Source: Escherichia phage vB_EcoM-S1P5QW
Reading direction: 5' to 3' (one strand)
DNA length: 64,000 nucleotides
Sequence record: OL956808.1
Shown here: positions 1 through 16,577 of the stretch, one piece after another
How positions within the stretch are numbered: the stretch's first letter is position 1
Layout: each line of letters starts with the position of its first letter
Notes under the pieces: model-generated
Told to the model about the DNA's origin: nothing
Seen by the model: the letters and a program-made list of their open reading frames with translations, nothing else
Databases searched by the model: none
Translations under genes and position numbers: made by a program

Positions 1-369
1 ATTGACCCAGAAATGAAAATGGATTGGGACAAAGACGTTTCCAGATCTCTTGGATTAAGGTCAATTAAAAATAGCCTTTTAGGAATTATTACAACCAGGA
101 AAGGGTCAAGGCCATTTGACCCAGAGTTTGGATGCGATTTATCTGATCAGCTTTTTGAGAATATGACTCCTCTTACTGCTGATACTGTTGAGCGTAACAT
201 TGAAAGCGCAGTAAGAAACTACGAGCCACGTATTGATAAATTAGCAGTTAATGTAATACCAGTTTATGATGATTATACTCTGATAGTAGAAATACGCTTT
301 TCAGTCATCGATAACCCTGATGATATTGAGCAGATAAAACTACAACTGGCTTCCAGTAACAGAGTATAA
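1..369 (+). CDS. 25: baseplate wedge protein gp25 (5'-truncated at window edge)
   Basis: Open frame from nt 1; translation IDPEMKMDW...SSNRV matches recalled T4 gp25 C-terminal region; lies upstream of uvsY as in T4. Confidence 0.85.
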   Translation: MDPEMKMDWDKDVSRSLGLRSIKNSLLGIITTRKGSRPFDPEFGCDLSDQLFENMTPLTADTVERNIESAVRNYEPRIDKLAVNVIPVYDDYTLIVEIRFSVIDNPDDIEQIKLQLASSNRV

Positions 370-393
370 TGCTTCACGTATAAACGTGGTATA
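367..393 (+). promoter_or_regulatory. MotA-dependent middle promoter for uvsY
   Basis: MotA box aaTGCTTca about 12 nt upstream of -10 ggtataat. Confidence 0.6.
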
Positions 394-435
394 ATGAATC
401 TAAGTCCATCCAATAACAATTGAATAGAGAACAAT

Positions 436-849
436 ATGAAATTAGAAGATCTTCAAGAAGAATTGAAGAAAGATGTGTTTATAGATTCGACTAAATTACA
501 GTATGAAGCAGCTAATAATGTGATGTTATATAGTAAATGGCTCAATAAGCATTCAAGTATTAAAAAGGAAATGCTTAGAATTGATGCACAGAAAAAAGTT
601 GCTCTTAAAGCTAAATTAGACTACTACTCGGGACGAGGAGATGGTGATGAATTTAGTATGGATCGTTACGAGAAATCAGAAATGAAAACAGTTCTATCAG
701 CTGATAAGGATGTTTTAAAAGTTGATACTTCATTGCAATATTGGGGAATTTTATTGGATTTCTGTAGCGGAGCTCTTGATGCTATTAAATCACGCGGATT
801 TGCTATTAAGCATATTCAAGACATGCGAGCATTTGAGGCTGGAAAATAA
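436..849 (+). CDS. uvsY: recombination mediator UvsY
   Basis: 137 aa, near-identical to recalled T4 UvsY; ATG with agaga RBS; MotA-type middle promoter upstream. Confidence 0.92.
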   Translation: MKLEDLQEELKKDVFIDSTKLQYEAANNVMLYSKWLNKHSSIKKEMLRIDAQKKVALKAKLDYYSGRGDGDEFSMDRYEKSEMKTVLSADKDVLKVDTSLQYWGILLDFCSGALDAIKSRGFAIKHIQDMRAFEAGK

Positions 850-1073
850 TGAGATATAGCATTGATGATGCTTTTAATTATGAAGAAGAATTCGAAACGG
901 AAATTCAATTCTTAATGAAAAAGTATAATCTCAAGCGTCAGGATATTCGTATCCTGGCCGACCACCCATGCGGTGAAGATGTACTTTATGTTAAAGGAAA
1001 ATTTGCTGGATATCTTGATGAATATTTTTATTCTAAAGATATGGGCATTGATATGCATATGAGAGTTATATAA
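849..1073 (+). CDS. hypothetical protein (uvsY.-1 position)
   Basis: 74 aa ORF; TAATG start/stop overlap with uvsY. Confidence 0.6.
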   Translation: MRYSIDDAFNYEEEFETEIQFLMKKYNLKRQDIRILADHPCGEDVLYVKGKFAGYLDEYFYSKDMGIDMHMRVI

Positions 1074-1076
1074 ATA
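1069..1076 (+). promoter_or_regulatory. late promoter (TATAAATA)
   Basis: Exact TATAAATA about 26 nt upstream of ATG 1102. Confidence 0.6.
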
Positions 1077-1101
1077 GATATATAATTTAGAGGAGACAAT
1101 C

Positions 1102-1269
1102 ATGTCAGATAAGATTTGCGTTGTCTGTAAAACTCCAATCGATTCTGCATTGGTTGTTGAAACAGACAAAGGTCCTGTACATCCTGGGCCTTGCTATAAT
1201 TACATTAAAGAACTACCAGTTTCAGAAAGTTCGGAAGAACAATTAAATGAAACACAACTTTTGCTATAG
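1102..1269 (+). CDS. hypothetical Cys-containing small protein (uvsY.-2 position)
   Basis: 55 aa ORF not in track (<60 aa); ATG at 1102 preceded by aggag RBS; TATAAATA late promoter at 1069-1076; terminator hairpin downstream. Confidence 0.55.
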   Translation: MSDKICVVCKTPIDSALVVETDKGPVHPGPCYNYIKELPVSESSEEQLNETQLLL

Positions 1270-1288
1270 TGTGACCTTTAGTCTATAG

Positions 1289-1320
1289 TTTTGGCCCTTC
1301 CTTTTTGGTTGGGCCTTTTT
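1289..1320. terminator. bidirectional intrinsic terminator between uvsY.-2 and uvsW.1
   Basis: GC stem ggccc/gggcc flanked by T-run on plus strand and A-run upstream; convergent genes. Confidence 0.5.
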
Positions 1321-1324
1321 TAAT

Positions 1325-1555
1325 TTAAAAGCTTTCTTCTACTTCATCGTCTGAATCTTCTAATTCAGCTCTTTTTCCTGCCAAAGCATCTCTCACAGAG
1401 ATGTCATCAGTATCTTTTAATTCAGTTTCTTTGACTCTTTTCTTATAATAAGCTTCAAGTTCTTCTAAACCTTCTAATGTTTGACAAGAGGCAATTTTAC
1501 CCATAAATTCATCAATAGAAGCTTCATAAAGAAATTGTTTAAATTCTAGTAACAT
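1325..1555 (-). CDS. uvsW.1: UvsW.1-like small protein
   Basis: Track ORF starts at a TTG (1567); first ATG at 1555 gives 76 aa, the length recalled for T4 UvsW.1; directly downstream of uvsW. Confidence 0.7.
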   Translation of the reverse strand: MLLEFKQFLYEASIDEFMGKIASCQTLEGLEELEAYYKKRVKETELKDTDDISVRDALAGKRAELEDSDDEVEESF

Positions 1556-1580
1556 CTTTTTCTCCAAAGGGCCGAAGCCC

Positions 1581-3092
1581 TTATAAATTAACTGTTTTCA
1601 TTACGTAATTAAATTTTTCATCTGCGTAGCGCTGAATACGATCAATGCCGTGTTTTAAAAGATAGTTCAAATGAACGTATTTCTTTTTCGTATTAGCAGA
1701 TTTTGGCTTAACACCGCAATCATCAATGAGGTCCCAGACCGTTGCGATTGTTTTAGAACCATGCTTACGTAATACGCGACCTATTGTTTGCAATACAATA
1801 ATTTTAGATTTAACACCGTGTGCTAAAACAACGTGATGCAGATTTTTAACTGAAATACCAGTAGAAAATACACCATAACTAGCTACTATAATTATTCCTT
1901 TACCGTTTTCAGCTAAAGTTTTCATTACATTGCGGGTTTCGGTATCAACTTCCCCTGATACGTAATAAACTTTATCGTATTCATTTTTAATTAAATCGAA
2001 AATAGCTTTACCGTGTGATACGTGTTTAAACATGACAAAAGCGTTTTCATCTTTTTGCGCAAGCTTAATAGCTAATTTAGCGATCCATTTATTTCTTTTA
2101 CTGAGTCCAGTAATAATTTTTATTTCTTCTTGGTAAGTTTTTCCCTTTAATTTAGTAGTGAACTCATCGGGATAGCGAAGAAAAATACTATTAATTTTTA
2201 ACTCAGTTACTTGTCCATCTTCCATTAATTTAGAAGTCGTTACTGGCTTAAATATTTCACCAAACATTCCAACATACTGCATGATATTAGCTTTGCCATC
2301 ACGCAATGAACCGGACAAACCAAATTTAAACATGCAGTTATTTAAACCTGATATGATAGATGAAATACTTTTTCCTGTAGCAAGATGACATTCATCATTC
2401 ATCATCATTCCAAACTGTGAGAACCATTCTTTTGGTTGTTTTACTACAGTTTGCCATGTACCAACAACGACTGGTGCATCATTTTTATATTTATCATCTT
2501 TTGATGCTCCACCGCCGATTTTCTTTATCATTGCATGACTGAATAAACGATAGTCAACAAAGTCATCAGCCATCTGAGTTGTTAAAGCAGTTGTTGGAAC
2601 AATGATAAGAATTTTACCTTCATAATTTTCCAAATAATACCGAGCAAGCAGAGCTTGAATTAACGATTTACCAGCGGATGTTGGAAGATTAAGAATTCTA
2701 CGACGATTAACTAATCCTTCGAACACTGCATCTTTTTGATACCAGTGTGGTTCAATTCTTTTATTTCCTGAATAGATTTCTAATTTAGAAAGCCATTCAT
2801 CAAAATCTTTTCTTGATAATTCTTCTTTTTCGTTAATCTGCGGGTCAATCCAGGCTTTATAGCCAAAGTTATCACAGAACTTTTTAATTTGCCCGACTAA
2901 GCCGAATGGAAGAAGGCGATTATAATCTAAAAGACGGATTCGTCCATCCCAGTGACCATATTTGTATTTCGGATTAAAACGATACCCTTCAGCTTCAAAG
3001 CTAAAGAAATCACGGAGTTCATGAAATGTACTTTCTTCACAATCAATTCTCACGTGACTAAAATCATAAAAATGTACTTTAATGTCAGTCAT
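1581..3092 (-). CDS. uvsW: UvsW DNA/RNA helicase (SF2)
   Basis: 503 aa; Walker A TSAGKS and DECH box; matches recalled T4 UvsW. Confidence 0.9.
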   Translation of the reverse strand: MTDIKVHFYDFSHVRIDCEESTFHELRDFFSFEAEGYRFNPKYKYGHWDGRIRLLDYNRLLPFGLVGQIKKFCDNFGYKAWIDPQINEKEELSRKDFDEWLSKLEIYSGNKRIEPHWYQKDAVFEGLVNRRRILNLPTSAGKSLIQALLARYYLENYEGKILIIVPTTALTTQMADDFVDYRLFSHAMIKKIGGGASKDDKYKNDAPVVVGTWQTVVKQPKEWFSQFGMMMNDECHLATGKSISSIISGLNNCMFKFGLSGSLRDGKANIMQYVGMFGEIFKPVTTSKLMEDGQVTELKINSIFLRYPDEFTTKLKGKTYQEEIKIITGLSKRNKWIAKLAIKLAQKDENAFVMFKHVSHGKAIFDLIKNEYDKVYYVSGEVDTETRNVMKTLAENGKGIIIVASYGVFSTGISVKNLHHVVLAHGVKSKIIVLQTIGRVLRKHGSKTIATVWDLIDDCGVKPKSANTKKKYVHLNYLLKHGIDRIQRYADEKFNYVMKTVNL

Positions 3093-3121
3093 GTCTAAAT
3101 ACCATGTAATAAATATATCTA

Positions 3122-3129
3122 TATTTATA
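3122..3129 (-). promoter_or_regulatory. late promoter for uvsW
   Basis: Plus-strand tatttata = minus-strand TATAAATA, about 30 nt upstream of uvsW ATG. Confidence 0.6.
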
Positions 3130-3142
3130 CTGAGGAAATATT

Positions 3143-3823
3143 ATGATAGATAAAGATTATATTGCAGAGCTGAAGGCTCTTGATGATAACAAAGAAGCTA
3201 AAGCTAAATTAGCTGAATATGCTGAACAGTTTGGTATAAAGGTCAAAAAGAATAAATCTTTTGATAATATCGTTGTTGATATTGAAGAAGCCCTCCAGAA
3301 GCTCGCTAGTGAACCTATGCCAGAGACTGATGGGTTATCTATTAAAGACTTAATTGATGCTGCTGATGCCGCAGACGGATTAAAATATGACGATGAAGAA
3401 GTCAATCTAGAGGCAGCACTTCTGATTGATTCTCCGGTTAAATCTGACATTAAAATTGAAGTAGTAGAAATGGATAAAATTCCTGAAAATACCGATGTTT
3501 TGATTGAAGATACTCCTTTTGTTGAAGAAAAATTCGAGCAAGCTGTAGCTGAGATTATTGAATCTGAAAAGCCGTCTGTATTTACTCTTCCGGAAAACTT
3601 TAGTCCGAATCTTCAGCTGATTGGAAAAAATCCAGGATTCTGCACTGTTCCTTGGTGGATTTACCAGTGGATTGCTGAAACTCCGGATTGGAAATCTCAC
3701 CCAACAAGTTTTGAACATGCGTCGGCACACCAAACTTTATTTAGCTTAATTTATTACATTAATCGCGACGGATCAGTTCTAATTCGTGAAACACGCAATT
3801 CTTCTTTCGTAACATTAAAATAA
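3143..3823 (+). CDS. inh: Inh, inhibitor of prohead protease gp21
   Basis: 226 aa, same length and position as T4 inh, next to hoc; gagga RBS. Confidence 0.75.
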   Translation: MIDKDYIAELKALDDNKEAKAKLAEYAEQFGIKVKKNKSFDNIVVDIEEALQKLASEPMPETDGLSIKDLIDAADAADGLKYDDEEVNLEAALLIDSPVKSDIKIEVVEMDKIPENTDVLIEDTPFVEEKFEQAVAEIIESEKPSVFTLPENFSPNLQLIGKNPGFCTVPWWIYQWIAETPDWKSHPTSFEHASAHQTLFSLIYYINRDGSVLIRETRNSSFVTLK

Positions 3824-3832
3824 GGATAACTT

Positions 3833-4963
3833 ATGGCTTTTACAGTTGATATAACTCCTAAAACACCTACTGGAGTTATAGATCAGACTCAGCAGTTTAC
3901 TGCTACACCCAGTGGTCAAACTGGAGATGGACCTATTACATATGCTTGGACTGTAGACGACGCTCCACAGGAAGAAACGTCAGCAACTTTTAGTTATGTA
4001 CTAAAAGGACCTGCCGGTCAAAAGACTATTAAAGTAGTTGCAACAAATCCAGTTCCTGATTCTGAAGCTGAAACAGCTGAAATTAGTACAACTATCACAG
4101 TTCAAAATAAGACACAGACAACTACTTTAGCTGTAACTCCTAATAGTCCTCCGGAAGGAGTAATCGGAACAGCTGTTGAATTTACCGCTACTTTAGCTTC
4201 ACAGCCACCAAGTGCATCTGCTACATATAAATGGTACGTAGATGATTCTCAAATTGGTGGAGAAACTAATTCTACATTTAGCTATACTCCAACTACAAGT
4301 GGAGTAAAAAGAATTAAATGCGTAGCCCAAGTGACGGCAACGGATTATGACGCAAAAGAAGTTACTTCGAATGAAGTATCATTAACGGTTAATAAGAAGA
4401 CAATGAATCCACAGGTTACATTGACTCCTCCTTCTATTAACGTTCAACAAGATGCTTTGGCTACATTTACTGCTAATGTCACTGATGCTCCAGAAGAAGC
4501 ACAAATCGAATACTCATGGAAGAAAGATTCTTCTCCAGTAGAAGGATCAACTAATGTATATACCGTTGATACCTCATCTATTGGAAGTCAAACTATTGAA
4601 GTTACTGCAACTGTTACTGCTGCTGATTATGATAGCAAAACTATTACAGCAGAAGGTCAAGTTCAGGTAACTGATAAAGTTGCTCCGGAACCAGAAGGTG
4701 AATTGCCTTATGTTCATCCTCTTCCACATCGTACTTCAGCTTACATCTGGTGTGGTTGGTGGGTTATGGATGAAATCCAAAAAATGACCGAAGAAGGTAA
4801 AGATTGGAAAACTGATGATCCGGATAGTAAGTACTACTTGCATCGTTACACTCTTCAGAAAATGATGAAAGACTATCCAGAAGTTGATGTTCAAGAATCA
4901 CGTAATGGATACATCATTCATAAAACTGCTTTAGAAACTGGTATCATCTATACCTATCCATAA
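3833..4963 (+). CDS. hoc: Hoc, highly immunogenic outer capsid protein (Ig-like domains)
   Basis: 376 aa; N-terminus MAFTVDITPKTPTGVID... matches recalled T4 Hoc; repeated Ig-like segments; terminator hairpin after stop. Confidence 0.9.
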   Translation: MAFTVDITPKTPTGVIDQTQQFTATPSGQTGDGPITYAWTVDDAPQEETSATFSYVLKGPAGQKTIKVVATNPVPDSEAETAEISTTITVQNKTQTTTLAVTPNSPPEGVIGTAVEFTATLASQPPSASATYKWYVDDSQIGGETNSTFSYTPTTSGVKRIKCVAQVTATDYDAKEVTSNEVSLTVNKKTMNPQVTLTPPSINVQQDALATFTANVTDAPEEAQIEYSWKKDSSPVEGSTNVYTVDTSSIGSQTIEVTATVTAADYDSKTITAEGQVQVTDKVAPEPEGELPYVHPLPHRTSAYIWCGWWVMDEIQKMTEEGKDWKTDDPDSKYYLHRYTLQKMMKDYPEVDVQESRNGYIIHKTALETGIIYTYP

Positions 4964-4968
4964 TCATA

Positions 4969-4992
4969 AGGGGCTTCGGCCCCTTTCTTCAT
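4969..4992 (+). terminator. intrinsic terminator after hoc
   Basis: Hairpin aggggc-ttcg-gcccct followed by T-rich run. Confidence 0.6.
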
Positions 4993-13342: not shown

Positions 13343-13834
13343 TTATTCCCAATAATCGAGAGCAAGAGTTACTTCAAAGGTTTGAATTTCATTGTTTGAA
13401 TCCCAATCTAATTGAAGTTCACCCACGTTAGTAGGCCACAGACCTTTAATTTCAATTTCTTTTGTTACTGTTTTAGCGTCACGAGCATATTGACGAACGA
13501 TAGCGCTCTTTTTATACTCTGCAGGTTTTCCACCAGTAATTTCGTTTCCTTGTCCTGCAGCAATGCTTTGCCAATCAACAAACTTCTGGCGAGCATCATG
13601 AGCTTCATCGTTCATTACTGTAACAGTCCAGTCATCGAATGTACGATCGCCTGCCACGTTAATTTTACGGTTCATAAATCCGACTGGAATTTTTTCTACA
13701 ATACCAGCTGGTAAAGCAGTGGCTTTACATTGGAACGTAAAATTTTGTCCAAGATAAGAAATTTCTACTTGGAATAAGTTAGGTCGAGCAAAATCACCAG
13801 ATTCAAACGCTCGTGTTACATCATCTACAAACAT
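13343..13834 (-). CDS. 19: tail tube protein gp19
   Basis: 163 aa; length and position as T4 gp19; late promoter upstream. Confidence 0.88.
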   Translation of the reverse strand: MFVDDVTRAFESGDFARPNLFQVEISYLGQNFTFQCKATALPAGIVEKIPVGFMNRKINVAGDRTFDDWTVTVMNDEAHDARQKFVDWQSIAAGQGNEITGGKPAEYKKSAIVRQYARDAKTVTKEIEIKGLWPTNVGELQLDWDSNNEIQTFEVTLALDYWE

Positions 13835-13848
13835 ATTAGCCTCTGTAG

Positions 13849-13856
13849 TATTTATA
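13849..13856 (-). promoter_or_regulatory. late promoter for gene 19
   Basis: Minus-strand TATAAATA shortly upstream of ATG 13834. Confidence 0.6.
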
Positions 13857-13914
13857 TCCCTATGTTTAACCTAGGGCATATAGAATTAAAGAATTAAGGA
13901 TATAGTGTATTTAT

Positions 13915-13937
13915 ATGGCCTGCCGAAACAGGCCTTT
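13915..13937 (-). terminator. hairpin flanking the HNH endonuclease gene
   Basis: Stem ggcctg/caggcc with loop ccgaaa just past the HNH ORF stop. Confidence 0.45.
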
Positions 13938-13941
13938 AGAA

Positions 13942-14592
13942 TCATTCTAGTAAATCCCAAAGATCTACACTATTTCTTTTTGATTTTTCTCGGTTAGATT
14001 CCCAAGTGATTATTTCTAAATTATTAATACCGCCAATTATTTTAGCAGGAATTAAATTATCAAAACCGTATTTGATAGATACCTTATGATCAAGTTGGTA
14101 AGCACCTTTTGTACCACACACTCCTATTTTATCAGCATTTGGCCATTTTGACCAAATTTTCTTATGCTTACGAGTTTCTTTATATACCAATGAAATATAT
14201 TCACGCATTTCAGATTTATTTGGGTTCCATCTTGGATGATTTACGCCATGCATACATTCTACTGTTTTTCCTTTATTCGCGGAACCATATGAATTATTGC
14301 GCATTTTATCTTTATGACGGCAATCACGACAAATATCAGTGTTTCTTCCAATGCGTTGGTTATATTCAATTCCACATTTATCGCAACGGCATTTTACATA
14401 CGCGGTACTACCTTTAATGTCTTCAACTTTAACATCAATTTCATAATACCTAAATCCATGTTTAACCGCTCCAAGAGGTGTTAATTTATAACCCTTTGAT
14501 TGATAATGTTTAAAATTTGATGGTACAATTTTCACTTTAATAAATTTAGAAATAATCACTTGATTCCTCGAGAATAGGGGCCGAAGCCCCAT
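13942..14592 (-). CDS. HNH homing endonuclease (free-standing, inserted between genes 18 and 19)
   Basis: 216 aa; CxxC pairs plus HNH-like QLDHKVSIKYGF...NLEIITWESNREKSKR; ATG lies inside a hairpin, alternative GTG start at 14559 has a GAGGAA RBS; flanked by GC-rich hairpins. Confidence 0.7.
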   Translation of the reverse strand: MGLRPLFSRNQVIISKFIKVKIVPSNFKHYQSKGYKLTPLGAVKHGFRYYEIDVKVEDIKGSTAYVKCRCDKCGIEYNQRIGRNTDICRDCRHKDKMRNNSYGSANKGKTVECMHGVNHPRWNPNKSEMREYISLVYKETRKHKKIWSKWPNADKIGVCGTKGAYQLDHKVSIKYGFDNLIPAKIIGGINNLEIITWESNREKSKRNSVDLWDLLE

Positions 14593-14597
14593 ATCAA

Positions 14598-16577
14598 TTA
14601 ACCTGCAAGACCAGTTAACTCATCGAAATCTGCACCAGTAGCAGTTGCGACGAAATTCAAAGTAATATAATTTATACTGCGCGCCGGTTGGATGTAGAAT
14701 GTTGCAACAAACTCATTTCTATCAATTACTGACGGAGTGTTATTTGTTGTATCGCAAACTACACGATATTCATAAATTCCACCGAGAGCTTTAATTCCCT
14801 GTAAGTACTGGGCAGTTTCTGTGCGGAATGATGAACGAGTAAACGCGTTGTTTAATTCGAACAAACGATATTTTGAACTACGTCCGATATTCGTTTTCAA
14901 CATATTAAACAGACGACGAACGTTAATACGATCAAATGGAGAAGGAACAGAAGTAGCTGTTTTATCACCATACAATACGTAACCATCACCACCTGTACCA
15001 GTTACTGGGTTGATAGCTTCTTGGTATAAACGGTTGCGCTGCGCCTGACGAGTTTCAATAGCAAGTTTAATAACGTTAAGAATCTGGCCACGATTATAAC
15101 CAGCTGGAGACATCCAAGTCTGAGAAACGTTATCAGTTCTTGCGCATAAACCAGCAATATCAGCTGCTAATGGAACCCAACGATTCACATCATTATATTT
15201 GTCGTACTGATACTTGTAGTTACCATCAATTGCTGCGTAGGTTGAACTGATATTAAAGTTATTATCAGTGTATGAACCTACTGCAGTTCTCCAGTTAACT
15301 AAATTATCTACTGCACGAGTTACAGGAATTCCAACTACAGTTTCACGCGGTGGTGAGCACAGTACTAAGCAATCTTGGCGAGCATCCCCAATTGAAACGA
15401 CGTGTTTTTGGACAGTAGATGCTGTTTCTAAAGATTCACCGGCACAAGAACCCGCAATAAACAACTGAACGTCAACAGATTCACGGTCAGCAAAGAAGTC
15501 CCAAGCTTCCATCAAATCTCCTGCTGTTACTTCAGCATTTGATGATAAACCACCAGACAGAGTTAAAATTCCAGAGAAGCCTTCTGGCCAGTTTTGTGCA
15601 GTTGCGAAAATATATTCTGAACCACCTTTTGCGAAAAAGTCATCAATATAGATGTTACTATCGTAAATATCTTTTTCACCACGCTTCGTTGAAAGAACAA
15701 CGCTTTGAACAATAGCATCATTGCGACGAACTATAATAGCGTATTGTGAATCAGTTTGTGGTCCATATCCAAACACTGCTTTGGCAGTAGATGCGCGTGT
15801 TCCGCCACCTGGATAAATTGGGAGTAATGCAGAAGCACCTTTTGCGTAGTCTGCTTTAGATACGATTTCAATTTCGATTTTATCGCCCAACTCGCCTGGA
15901 TAAAGAGCTACTACTCCTGGAATTCCATATTTTTCGAGATTTGCTTGAAAGTCAACAGCTGTCATAGCAGCTTCGGCATTTTCAATTTCAGCTAATAAAA
16001 TACCAGAATCAGTAATAATTTTTCCAAGAGTTATTACTGCAGCTAAACCAGAGGAAGACGAAGAAATTTCCGCAGTCCAGTTAGAACCTAATGCTGGATA
16101 TTCGCCTACTTCTTTCGCTTTAGCGATAATTTTTGCGGTAGGAATATTAATTTTCTTAATTTTTCCATCTGCGTCTACTTCAGTAATTTTACCTTCTGTT
16201 TCAACATCTTCTGAAACATACTTAACAGTGATTTTATCTCCAACCGCGTAGTTACTACCTGGGGTAGAAATAGTGTATTCAATATTACCGGCAATCGGAG
16301 ATGAGTTTTTAGCGGTATCTCTATCGACAGCACGCACAACTCGCAAATCATTTCCGTATTGTAAGAAATTCATTGCAGACATAAAATAGTCAGCAGTTTC
16401 AGCTGTAGGTTGACCAAAAGTATTAACTAAATCTACTTCATTTGTAACCTGTTTAATTTGAAAAGCAGGACCCCACTGGAATTTACCGGCCAAAGCTGCT
16501 GTACCAGTAGAGTTATTAACCACGGTGCTTTGAACCGTAGTTTCTTTGAGCTCAATGCCCGGAGATAATAAAGTCAT
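14598..16577 (-). CDS. 18: tail sheath protein gp18
   Basis: 659 aa; length and position as T4 gp18; late promoter upstream. Confidence 0.92.
   Translation of the reverse strand: MTLLSPGIELKETTVQSTVVNNSTGTAALAGKFQWGPAFQIKQVTNEVDLVNTFGQPTAETADYFMSAMNFLQYGNDLRVVRAVDRDTAKNSSPIAGNIEYTISTPGSNYAVGDKITVKYVSEDVETEGKITEVDADGKIKKINIPTAKIIAKAKEVGEYPALGSNWTAEISSSSSGLAAVITLGKIITDSGILLAEIENAEAAMTAVDFQANLEKYGIPGVVALYPGELGDKIEIEIVSKADYAKGASALLPIYPGGGTRASTAKAVFGYGPQTDSQYAIIVRRNDAIVQSVVLSTKRGEKDIYDSNIYIDDFFAKGGSEYIFATAQNWPEGFSGILTLSGGLSSNAEVTAGDLMEAWDFFADRESVDVQLFIAGSCAGESLETASTVQKHVVSIGDARQDCLVLCSPPRETVVGIPVTRAVDNLVNWRTAVGSYTDNNFNISSTYAAIDGNYKYQYDKYNDVNRWVPLAADIAGLCARTDNVSQTWMSPAGYNRGQILNVIKLAIETRQAQRNRLYQEAINPVTGTGGDGYVLYGDKTATSVPSPFDRINVRRLFNMLKTNIGRSSKYRLFELNNAFTRSSFRTETAQYLQGIKALGGIYEYRVVCDTTNNTPSVIDRNEFVATFYIQPARSINYITLNFVATATGADFDELTGLAG

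Follow-up and report, generated by a model that had tools for sequence, protein, structure and literature searches.

A free-standing gene for a probable HNH-type homing endonuclease at the tail sheath-tail tube junction of an RB3-like, T4-type Escherichia phage

Introduction

Free-standing homing endonucleases have their reference system in the T-even phages. Among the free-standing HNH homing endonucleases of T4, MobA-E, MobE is a characterised member (PMC2988022, PMC2790892). The mob genes are free-standing, intergenic and placed beside a conserved T-even gene, have a patchy distribution and encode enzymes of the HNH superfamily (PMC2988022, PMC2790892), all of which holds likewise, with the nuclease predicted, for the open reading frame (ORF) described here, located between gene 18 (tail sheath) and gene 19 (tail tube) of Escherichia phage vB_EcoM-S1P5QW. 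By contrast, MobA-E have no detectable sequence similarity to the product of this ORF, use another DNA-binding module and reside at another locus. The Hef/EDxHD enzymes (phage U5 Hef, I-Bth0305I) are comparable in that they are non-canonical free-standing homing endonucleases of T4-type phages, and in phage LIMEstone1 the tail tube gene is listed as the downstream gene of a ‘Hef-like’ gene (PMC3296691).

The counterpart of the present ORF in phage T6 is ORF19.1, which has been on the GenBank record since 1994. ORF19.1 occupies the same 18/19 slot, starts with GTG after an identical UUCG hairpin and ends at an identical downstream junction, and the two genes agree over the C-terminal 75 codons (88% for DNA, 78% for protein) as well as over the first 63 nt (89%). 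However, ORF19.1 represents a different allele type (type B), with residues 20-125 being ~26% identical and the overall identity amounting to 49-55%. No functional study of an ORF19.1-type protein was found in the searchable literature, nor a published function for either allele. A review of the mobile elements of T4 makes no mention of an 18/19 ORF (PMC2988022), and Table 5 of Petrov et al. (2010; PMC2993671) gives no ‘other HNH’ homing endonuclease gene (HEG) for RB3, so that the 18/19 ORF was not counted as an HEG at that time.

Boundaries of the Insertion at the 18/19 Junction

The original prediction was made from the letters of the window, i.e. the whole analysed stretch of 64,000 nucleotides (OL956808.1), and described a 216-aa ORF with Cys pairs and an HNH-like core that interrupts the junction of genes 18 and 19. 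This ORF is present at 13942-14592 of the minus strand exactly as first described, contains both quoted motif strings, QLDHKVSIKYGF and NLEIITWESNREKSKR, and carries two CxxC pairs (C70/C73 and C88/C91 of the 216-aa protein), as seen from the ORF list and the sequence. Its placement between the genes for gp18 and gp19 was likewise borne out (Table 1).

T4 is not known to have an endonuclease at this position, and indeed its 18/19 junction is a spacer of 116 bp without an ORF. In blastn comparisons the homology to T4 stops at window position 14597 (T4 100516) and restarts at 13942 (T4 100524), so that 654 bp stand for 7 bp of T4. Alignments with T2 show an empty junction with the same boundaries as in T4. 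Besides the ORF, the inserted segment comprises a hairpin and a ribosome-binding site, and the region as a whole is ~99% identical to that of RB3-, HP3- and Sf22-type Tequatroviruses. A clean difference is also seen in a second genus, where 688 bp in VR7 correspond to 24 bp in the empty L014, the loci being otherwise 95-96% identical, and again in a VR26-like genome (892 bp vs 203 bp). Like homing genes, the ORF is thus precisely present or absent among close relatives, in a gap between genes and next to a conserved one. A comparison of the 18/19 region among T4-like phages had been proposed as a means to define the insertion boundaries and the target site; it yielded the former (654 vs 7 bp), while no target site for the predicted enzyme could be derived. 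The right junction of the insert (13936-13948, minus strand) forms a palindrome, TAGAAT-G-ATTCTA, in which the last bases of the ORF, with the TGA stop among them, form the left arm and T4-native sequence forms the right one; this may be due to chance.

The ORF is found at the 18/19 junction of about 118 of 691 close relatives. When 60 evenly spaced records out of 514 were sampled for the state of the junction, six were of the RB3 type (~9%), eight of the T6 type (~13%) and 44 empty (~73%). A second copy of the family was not found within the 64-kb window.

Table 1. Positions of the features at the 18/19 locus in the window (residue numbers refer to the 216-aa protein).
Feature	Position	Strand	Basis or remark
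Likeliest coding sequence, GTG start, 205 aa + stop	13942..14559	-	Homolog starts, GAGGA, RB3/T6 annotation
Shine-Dalgarno-like GAGGA for the GTG start, 5 nt upstream	14565..14569	-	Sequence
Upstream hairpin GGGGC-UUCG-GCCCC (GGGGCTTCGGCCCC), directly 3′ of the gene 18 stop, inside the insert	14577..14590	-	Sequence, fold
Downstream hairpin GGCCUG-UUUCGG-CAGGCC (GGCCTGTTTCGGCAGGCC), native T4 18/19 spacer	13917..13934	-	Sequence, fold
Two T4 late promoter consensus boxes TATAAATA upstream of gene 19	13908-13915, 13849-13856 (within 13849..13915, -)		Identical in T4
Insert relative to T4 and T2, 654 bp for 7 bp ACGGTGC	13943..14596	-	blastn, alignments
Gene 18, tail sheath, upstream neighbour	14598..16577	-	Family associated with gene 18 in every phage examined
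Gene 19, tail tube, downstream neighbour	13343..13834	-	
N-terminal domain, residues 13-117, allele type A, presumed DNA-binding module	14242..14556	-	
Zinc ribbon CxxC...CxxC (C70, C73, C88, C91) within the N-terminal domain	about 14320-14385	-	
C-terminal HNH-like (ββα-metal) nuclease domain (predicted), residues 118-216	13945..14241	-	
HNH-like core, residues 165-203, with D168-H169, N191, N200, K203	13984-14100	-	
Block of 11 synonymous differences from T4, gene 18 nt 1896-1929	14649..14682	-	Alignments

Start Codon and Expression Signals

Translation, into a protein of 205 aa, probably starts at the GTG at 14559, downstream of the upstream hairpin, rather than at the ATG at 14592. This start is favoured because GAGGA precedes it, because all examined homologs from outside this phage lineage begin at an equivalent MII[ST]K, and because GTG is the annotated start in the records of RB3 (RB3_165) and T6 (ORF19.1). 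The ATG had been described as embedded in the upstream hairpin, and the overlap exists, since the G of the ATG (14592-14590) opens the stem; as a start codon, however, it is less likely than the GTG. The GC-rich hairpins that were reported on both sides of the ORF both exist, each one base off the positions given, but the downstream one does not belong to the insert. It folds with -14.1 kcal/mol (z = -3.3), a value reached by none of 200 shuffled sequences, and together with both TATAAATA boxes is identical in T4, which places these elements in the phage backbone, outside the insert.

A GC hairpin also follows the stop codon of gene 18 in all eight of the other homolog-bearing phages that were checked. 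Between this stop codon and the GTG at 14559 the window has no TATAAATA box, and nothing but the ribosome-binding site and the UUCG hairpin is seen there, so that late read-through from gene 18 would be the simplest way to transcribe the ORF. A consensus late promoter TATAAATA stands just before the ORF in VR7, CHI14 and Acj61 (spacers at locus positions 2934-3000, 2401-2500 and 2950-3000, respectively), and in VR7 and Acj61 it sits within the hairpin that follows gene 18. Control by a hairpin plus a late promoter is known for other T4 endonuclease genes, and the arrangement in VR7 and Acj61 resembles it.

A Conserved Family Without Curated Annotation

The homolog search returned 36 clusters at 90% identity, with E-values down to 3e-144 and all of them unannotated or ‘hypothetical’, and tblastn detected homologs in 247 phage records, nearly all of T4-type phages. 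Over the C-terminal 75 codons the dN/dS between the alleles of the window and T6 is 0.13 (18.5 synonymous and 13.5 non-synonymous changes), which indicates purifying selection. Given the E-values, the number of records and the dN/dS, the ORF is not a chance ORF. In PHROGs it is assigned to phrog_5104, ‘unknown function’, and an exhaustive profile search extended the family to 5,304 clusters (50% identity) at E ≤ 1e-3, of which 1,482 reach E ≤ 1e-10.

The GenBank labels of the ORF are mostly ‘hypothetical’, with a few records using ‘homing endonuclease’ or ‘type II restriction endonuclease’. The labels ‘holin’ and ‘putative head morphogenesis protein’ are propagated mislabels, as are ‘long tail fiber proximal subunit’ for the neighbouring gp18 and ‘chaperone for long tail fiber formation’ for gp20; AP018814 (T6), MW883059, OP168898, KR269718 and PQ657814 are records in which the ORF or its neighbours are mislabelled in this way.

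A Zinc-Ribbon N-Terminus and an HNH-Like C-Terminus

The encoded protein is composed of an N-terminal zinc-ribbon domain and a C-terminal HNH-like domain, which corresponds to the pairing of a nuclease domain with a separable DNA-binding module in homing enzymes. For the N-terminal domain, the treble-clef zinc finger DUF4379 (PF14311) is a candidate family. When 148 divergent homologs are aligned, D168, H169 and N191 alone are invariant, and L192, W197, N200 and K203 are kept in at least 90% of the sequences. The resulting D-H...N...N-x-x-K is the pattern of an H-N-N variant HNH, in which the last motif position is Asn and not His. AlphaFold predicts a strand (165-169) that ends in D-H, N191 directly before a second strand (192-196) and a helix (197-203) that carries N200, i.e. 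the catalytic-type residues of the HNH superfamily (D-H, Asn and a helical His/Asn) fall where the predicted secondary structure calls for them, and the model conforms to the ββα fold of the superfamily. The pLDDT is 82.7 for the full-length model and 87.7 for the 99-residue domain, the latter with a pTM of 0.76. The best structural matches of the predicted C-terminal domain are the HNH proteins of Geobacter (Gme, PDB 4h9d) and phage GVE2 (PDB 5h0o), with 70-73 residues aligned. Both are small stand-alone HNH nicking endonucleases and share the D-H...N...N/H-x-x-K pattern on a ββα scaffold with it.

Curated models and sequence searches do not detect such a domain. No curated HNH model of Pfam or NCBIfam hits the window protein, and the family consensus has no HNH match in Pfam. 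A phmmer search of the single protein against the PDB gave nothing relevant, profiles of the 36 and of the 148 homologs retrieved zinc ribbons only and no HNH from the PDB sequences, and Foldseek with the full-length model gave no PDB match at E < 1. In many HNH enzymes the core is flanked by CxxC pairs, which the HNH core of the ORF lacks. When the 148 homologs were scanned singly, HNH_4 matched in 15 (best E 9.5e-4) and HNH in eight (best E 2.4e-3), all below the gathering score. Because neither the curated models nor the PDB sequence searches find an HNH domain, the assignment rests on the motif and on the predicted fold, the latter with a modest Z. The conserved D-H...N...N-x-x-K, the predicted fold and the sub-threshold matches in relatives together support the HNH-like core of the original prediction, and the C-terminal domain very likely adopts an HNH fold.

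Known types of phage nuclease were compared with this architecture. The Mob type, HNH_3 plus NUMOD, was rejected on sequence, as neither HNH_3 nor NUMOD4 is found in the window protein or in the 36 close homologs. A Hef/EDxHD identity was rejected because the Vsr-like fold is not seen, U5 Hef being set apart by fold and not by direct sequence comparison. NUMOD3 or HTH modules precede the same C-terminal domain in a few relatives (NUMOD3 in 3 of 148). In several remote homologs (P0036, P0130, P0150, P0174 and P0178) the HNH-like C-terminal domain is repeatedly preceded by DUF7487, a domain through which homing endonucleases may bind DNA; the first of these is encoded in a genomic context unrelated to that of the ORF.

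Two Allele Types at One Site

Two deeply separated allele types exist at the 18/19 site, type A in the window, RB3, HP3 and Sf22, and type B in T6. Residues 20-125 are 26-29% identical between the types, whereas residues 126-216 are 80-86% identical within the lineage. In the comparison of the T6 allele (T6 locus 1703-2308) with that of the window (13942-14559, minus strand), the DNA can be aligned only at nt 1-63 (89%) and nt 428-651 (88%). The pairing of A and B with a C-terminal domain that is shared in a lineage-specific manner recurs in five separate lineages (P0019/P0001, P0025/P0010, P0026/P0011, P0028/P0006 and P0029/P0007). Judged from the alignments, this pattern looks like a repeated exchange of DNA-recognition modules on a common nuclease domain at one homing site. 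A wider and more tentative reading, to which we give rather little credence, is that the ORF belongs to a branch of a large uncurated HNH-like family that has remained with the 3′ end of the tail sheath gene in very distant myoviruses, and that two ancient N-terminal types have been kept next to each other at this locus in several genera, while the C-terminus has been homogenised repeatedly in each lineage. If this were true, two competing specificities would share one homing site, and each of them would possibly target the allele of the other or a different gene 18 haplotype.

The Gene 18 Haplotype Block

Close to the insert, gene 18 contains a short block of synonymous differences (Table 1), for which three haplotypes occur among T-even phages: that of the window and T2, that of T4 and sb1, and that of T6. 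The insert is found on two gene 18 haplotypes, that of the window and, in sb1, that of T4, and empty sites likewise occur on both (T2 and T4), so that all four combinations exist. A role of the block as a target or immunity polymorphism was rejected, since its linkage to the insert is not strict, T2 being empty with the window haplotype and sb1 carrying the insert with the T4 haplotype. Nor does the block stand out within gene 18, where further 60-nt bins reach almost the same divergence (8 vs 9 differences). At 14669-14676 the window haplotype has the sequence TATAAATT, which is missing from the T4 haplotype; this sequence is common to the window, T2 and T6 haplotypes, matches the T4 late promoter box at 7/8 positions and is a candidate promoter inside gene 18.

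Long Residence Behind the Tail Sheath Gene

A homolog lies directly 3′ of the tail sheath gene in the ten distant phages examined. It is found between genes 18 and 19 in T6, VR7, Acj61, STP4-a, Ci1, CHI14 and Aeromonas phage AS-zj, and immediately 3′ of the sheath gene in Sinorhizobium phage phiM19. In Campylobacter phage CP21 a 388-aa ORF with the C-terminal domain of the family, CP21_075, sits between sheath gene fragments. Copies of gp18 have been associated with mobile elements in CP21-type phages (Timms et al., 2010; PMC2853527). At the CP21 locus (115-3485) the annotation splits the sheath gene into three or four pieces, and more ORFs labelled ‘putative homing endonuclease’ follow downstream of CP21_075, one of them with DUF7487 (4175-4978).

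Across genera, the identity of the C-terminal domain roughly follows that of gp18 and gp19, with the exception of Ci1. This tracking suggests long residence at the locus with turnover inside genera, and not frequent jumps between genera; it fits long vertical residence as well as it fits mobility. The ORF of Citrobacter phage Ci1 (2501-3136) has a C-terminal domain that is 65% identical to that of the window, with gp18 and gp19 being just 52-54% identical, and this one sampled case hints at a transfer between genera. A co-conversion tract was not seen on the gene 19 side, since the gene 19 flanks of ORF-bearing phages are no more alike than they are to those of empty-site phages. A scan of IMG/VR with gp19 gave just 15 loci, too few for statistics.

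Alternative Explanations and a Possible Mechanism

The reading of the ORF as a free-standing mobile endonuclease is supported by the clean boundaries, the patchy presence, the recurrence in a second genus and the motif, homing itself being argued by analogy, and the ORF is probably a free-standing HNH-type homing endonuclease gene. The same data can also be read as a nuclease gene of long standing at the sheath-tube locus, accessory and dispensable, which would have been inherited vertically and lost repeatedly, e.g. from T4 and T2, without active homing, and which would serve the phage, for instance in competitor exclusion, in the degradation of host or competitor DNA or in DNA processing. 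The main support for this explanation is that the C-terminal identity roughly parallels that of gp18 and gp19; the identical position in ten phages, from Tequatrovirus to Emdodecavirus and Campylobacter phages, the purifying selection on the ORF and the lack of a visible co-conversion tract on the gene 19 side agree with it as well. However, repeated loss does not sit easily with clean boundaries and empty sites free of ORF remnants in two genera, or with two deeply different alleles at one site of one genus that have exchanged domains. Moreover, the ORF of Ci1 is closer to that of the window than the flanking genes are, relatives exist in other contexts and with modules (NUMOD3 or HTH) that are characteristic of homing endonucleases, and a role in competitor exclusion would not really be distinct from homing. 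An accessory nuclease without homing is thus considered unlikely.

A catalytically inactive HNH-like domain within a zinc-finger nucleic-acid-binding protein, acting e.g. as a late regulator or an assembly factor, would account for the prominence of the zinc ribbon, for the Asn in place of His at the final motif position, for the failure of curated HNH models to reach threshold and for the ‘head morphogenesis protein’ label of some records. Yet it is precisely the D-H, N, N and K of catalytic type that are invariant or nearly so in 148 divergent sequences, whereas a dead domain would not be expected to keep them in this way, and H-N-N variants are active in known HNH enzymes. The labels ‘head morphogenesis’ and ‘holin’ were propagated by similarity and carry no evidence, and T4 assembles its virions without the ORF. 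A catalytically inactive domain appears very improbable. A packaging-associated HNH protein of the HK97 gp74 or GVE2 type that aids the large terminase is brought to mind by the GVE2 enzyme among the two best structural matches and by the location within the late cluster 17-18-19-20, with the terminase on one side and the portal on the other, but is extremely improbable. HNH proteins of the HK97 gp74 type are conserved and required and lie next to the terminase genes of cos-type phages. The ORF, in contrast, is dispensable, as ~3/4 of near-identical phages, T4 and T2 among them, lack it, it is separated from gene 17 by gene 18, and it encodes a presumed DNA-binding zinc ribbon of its own; moreover, terminases of the T4 type have a nuclease of their own and use headful packaging.

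For a homing endonuclease, the following course of events can be envisaged. Late transcripts of gene 18 would run on past the UUCG hairpin into the gene, and translation from the GTG at 14559 would give a protein of 205 aa, in which the N-terminal zinc ribbon would recognise DNA and the C-terminal ββα-metal domain, an H-N-N variant, would act as the nuclease. By analogy with the characterised mob and seg genes of T-even phages, during a mixed infection the enzyme would introduce a nick or a cut into the genome of a related phage in the same cell, close to the empty 18/19 junction or the 3′ end of gene 18. The damage would be repaired by recombination with the genome that carries the ORF, and the recipient would thereby acquire the ORF together with nearby markers.

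Implications

The ORF extends a known class in a phage group that is rich in such elements and leaves current concepts unchanged, the dimorphism of its A and B domains being its one less ordinary feature. If the protein is an active HNH nickase, the 18/19 junction would be a new T-even homing site within the structural gene cluster, and a function would be available for PHROG 5104 and thousands of metagenomic relatives. Sheath and tube genes often serve as phylogenetic markers, and an active enzyme could help to explain local mosaicism around them. The paired A and B alleles would furthermore provide a natural experiment on the swapping of DNA-recognition modules onto a single nuclease domain.
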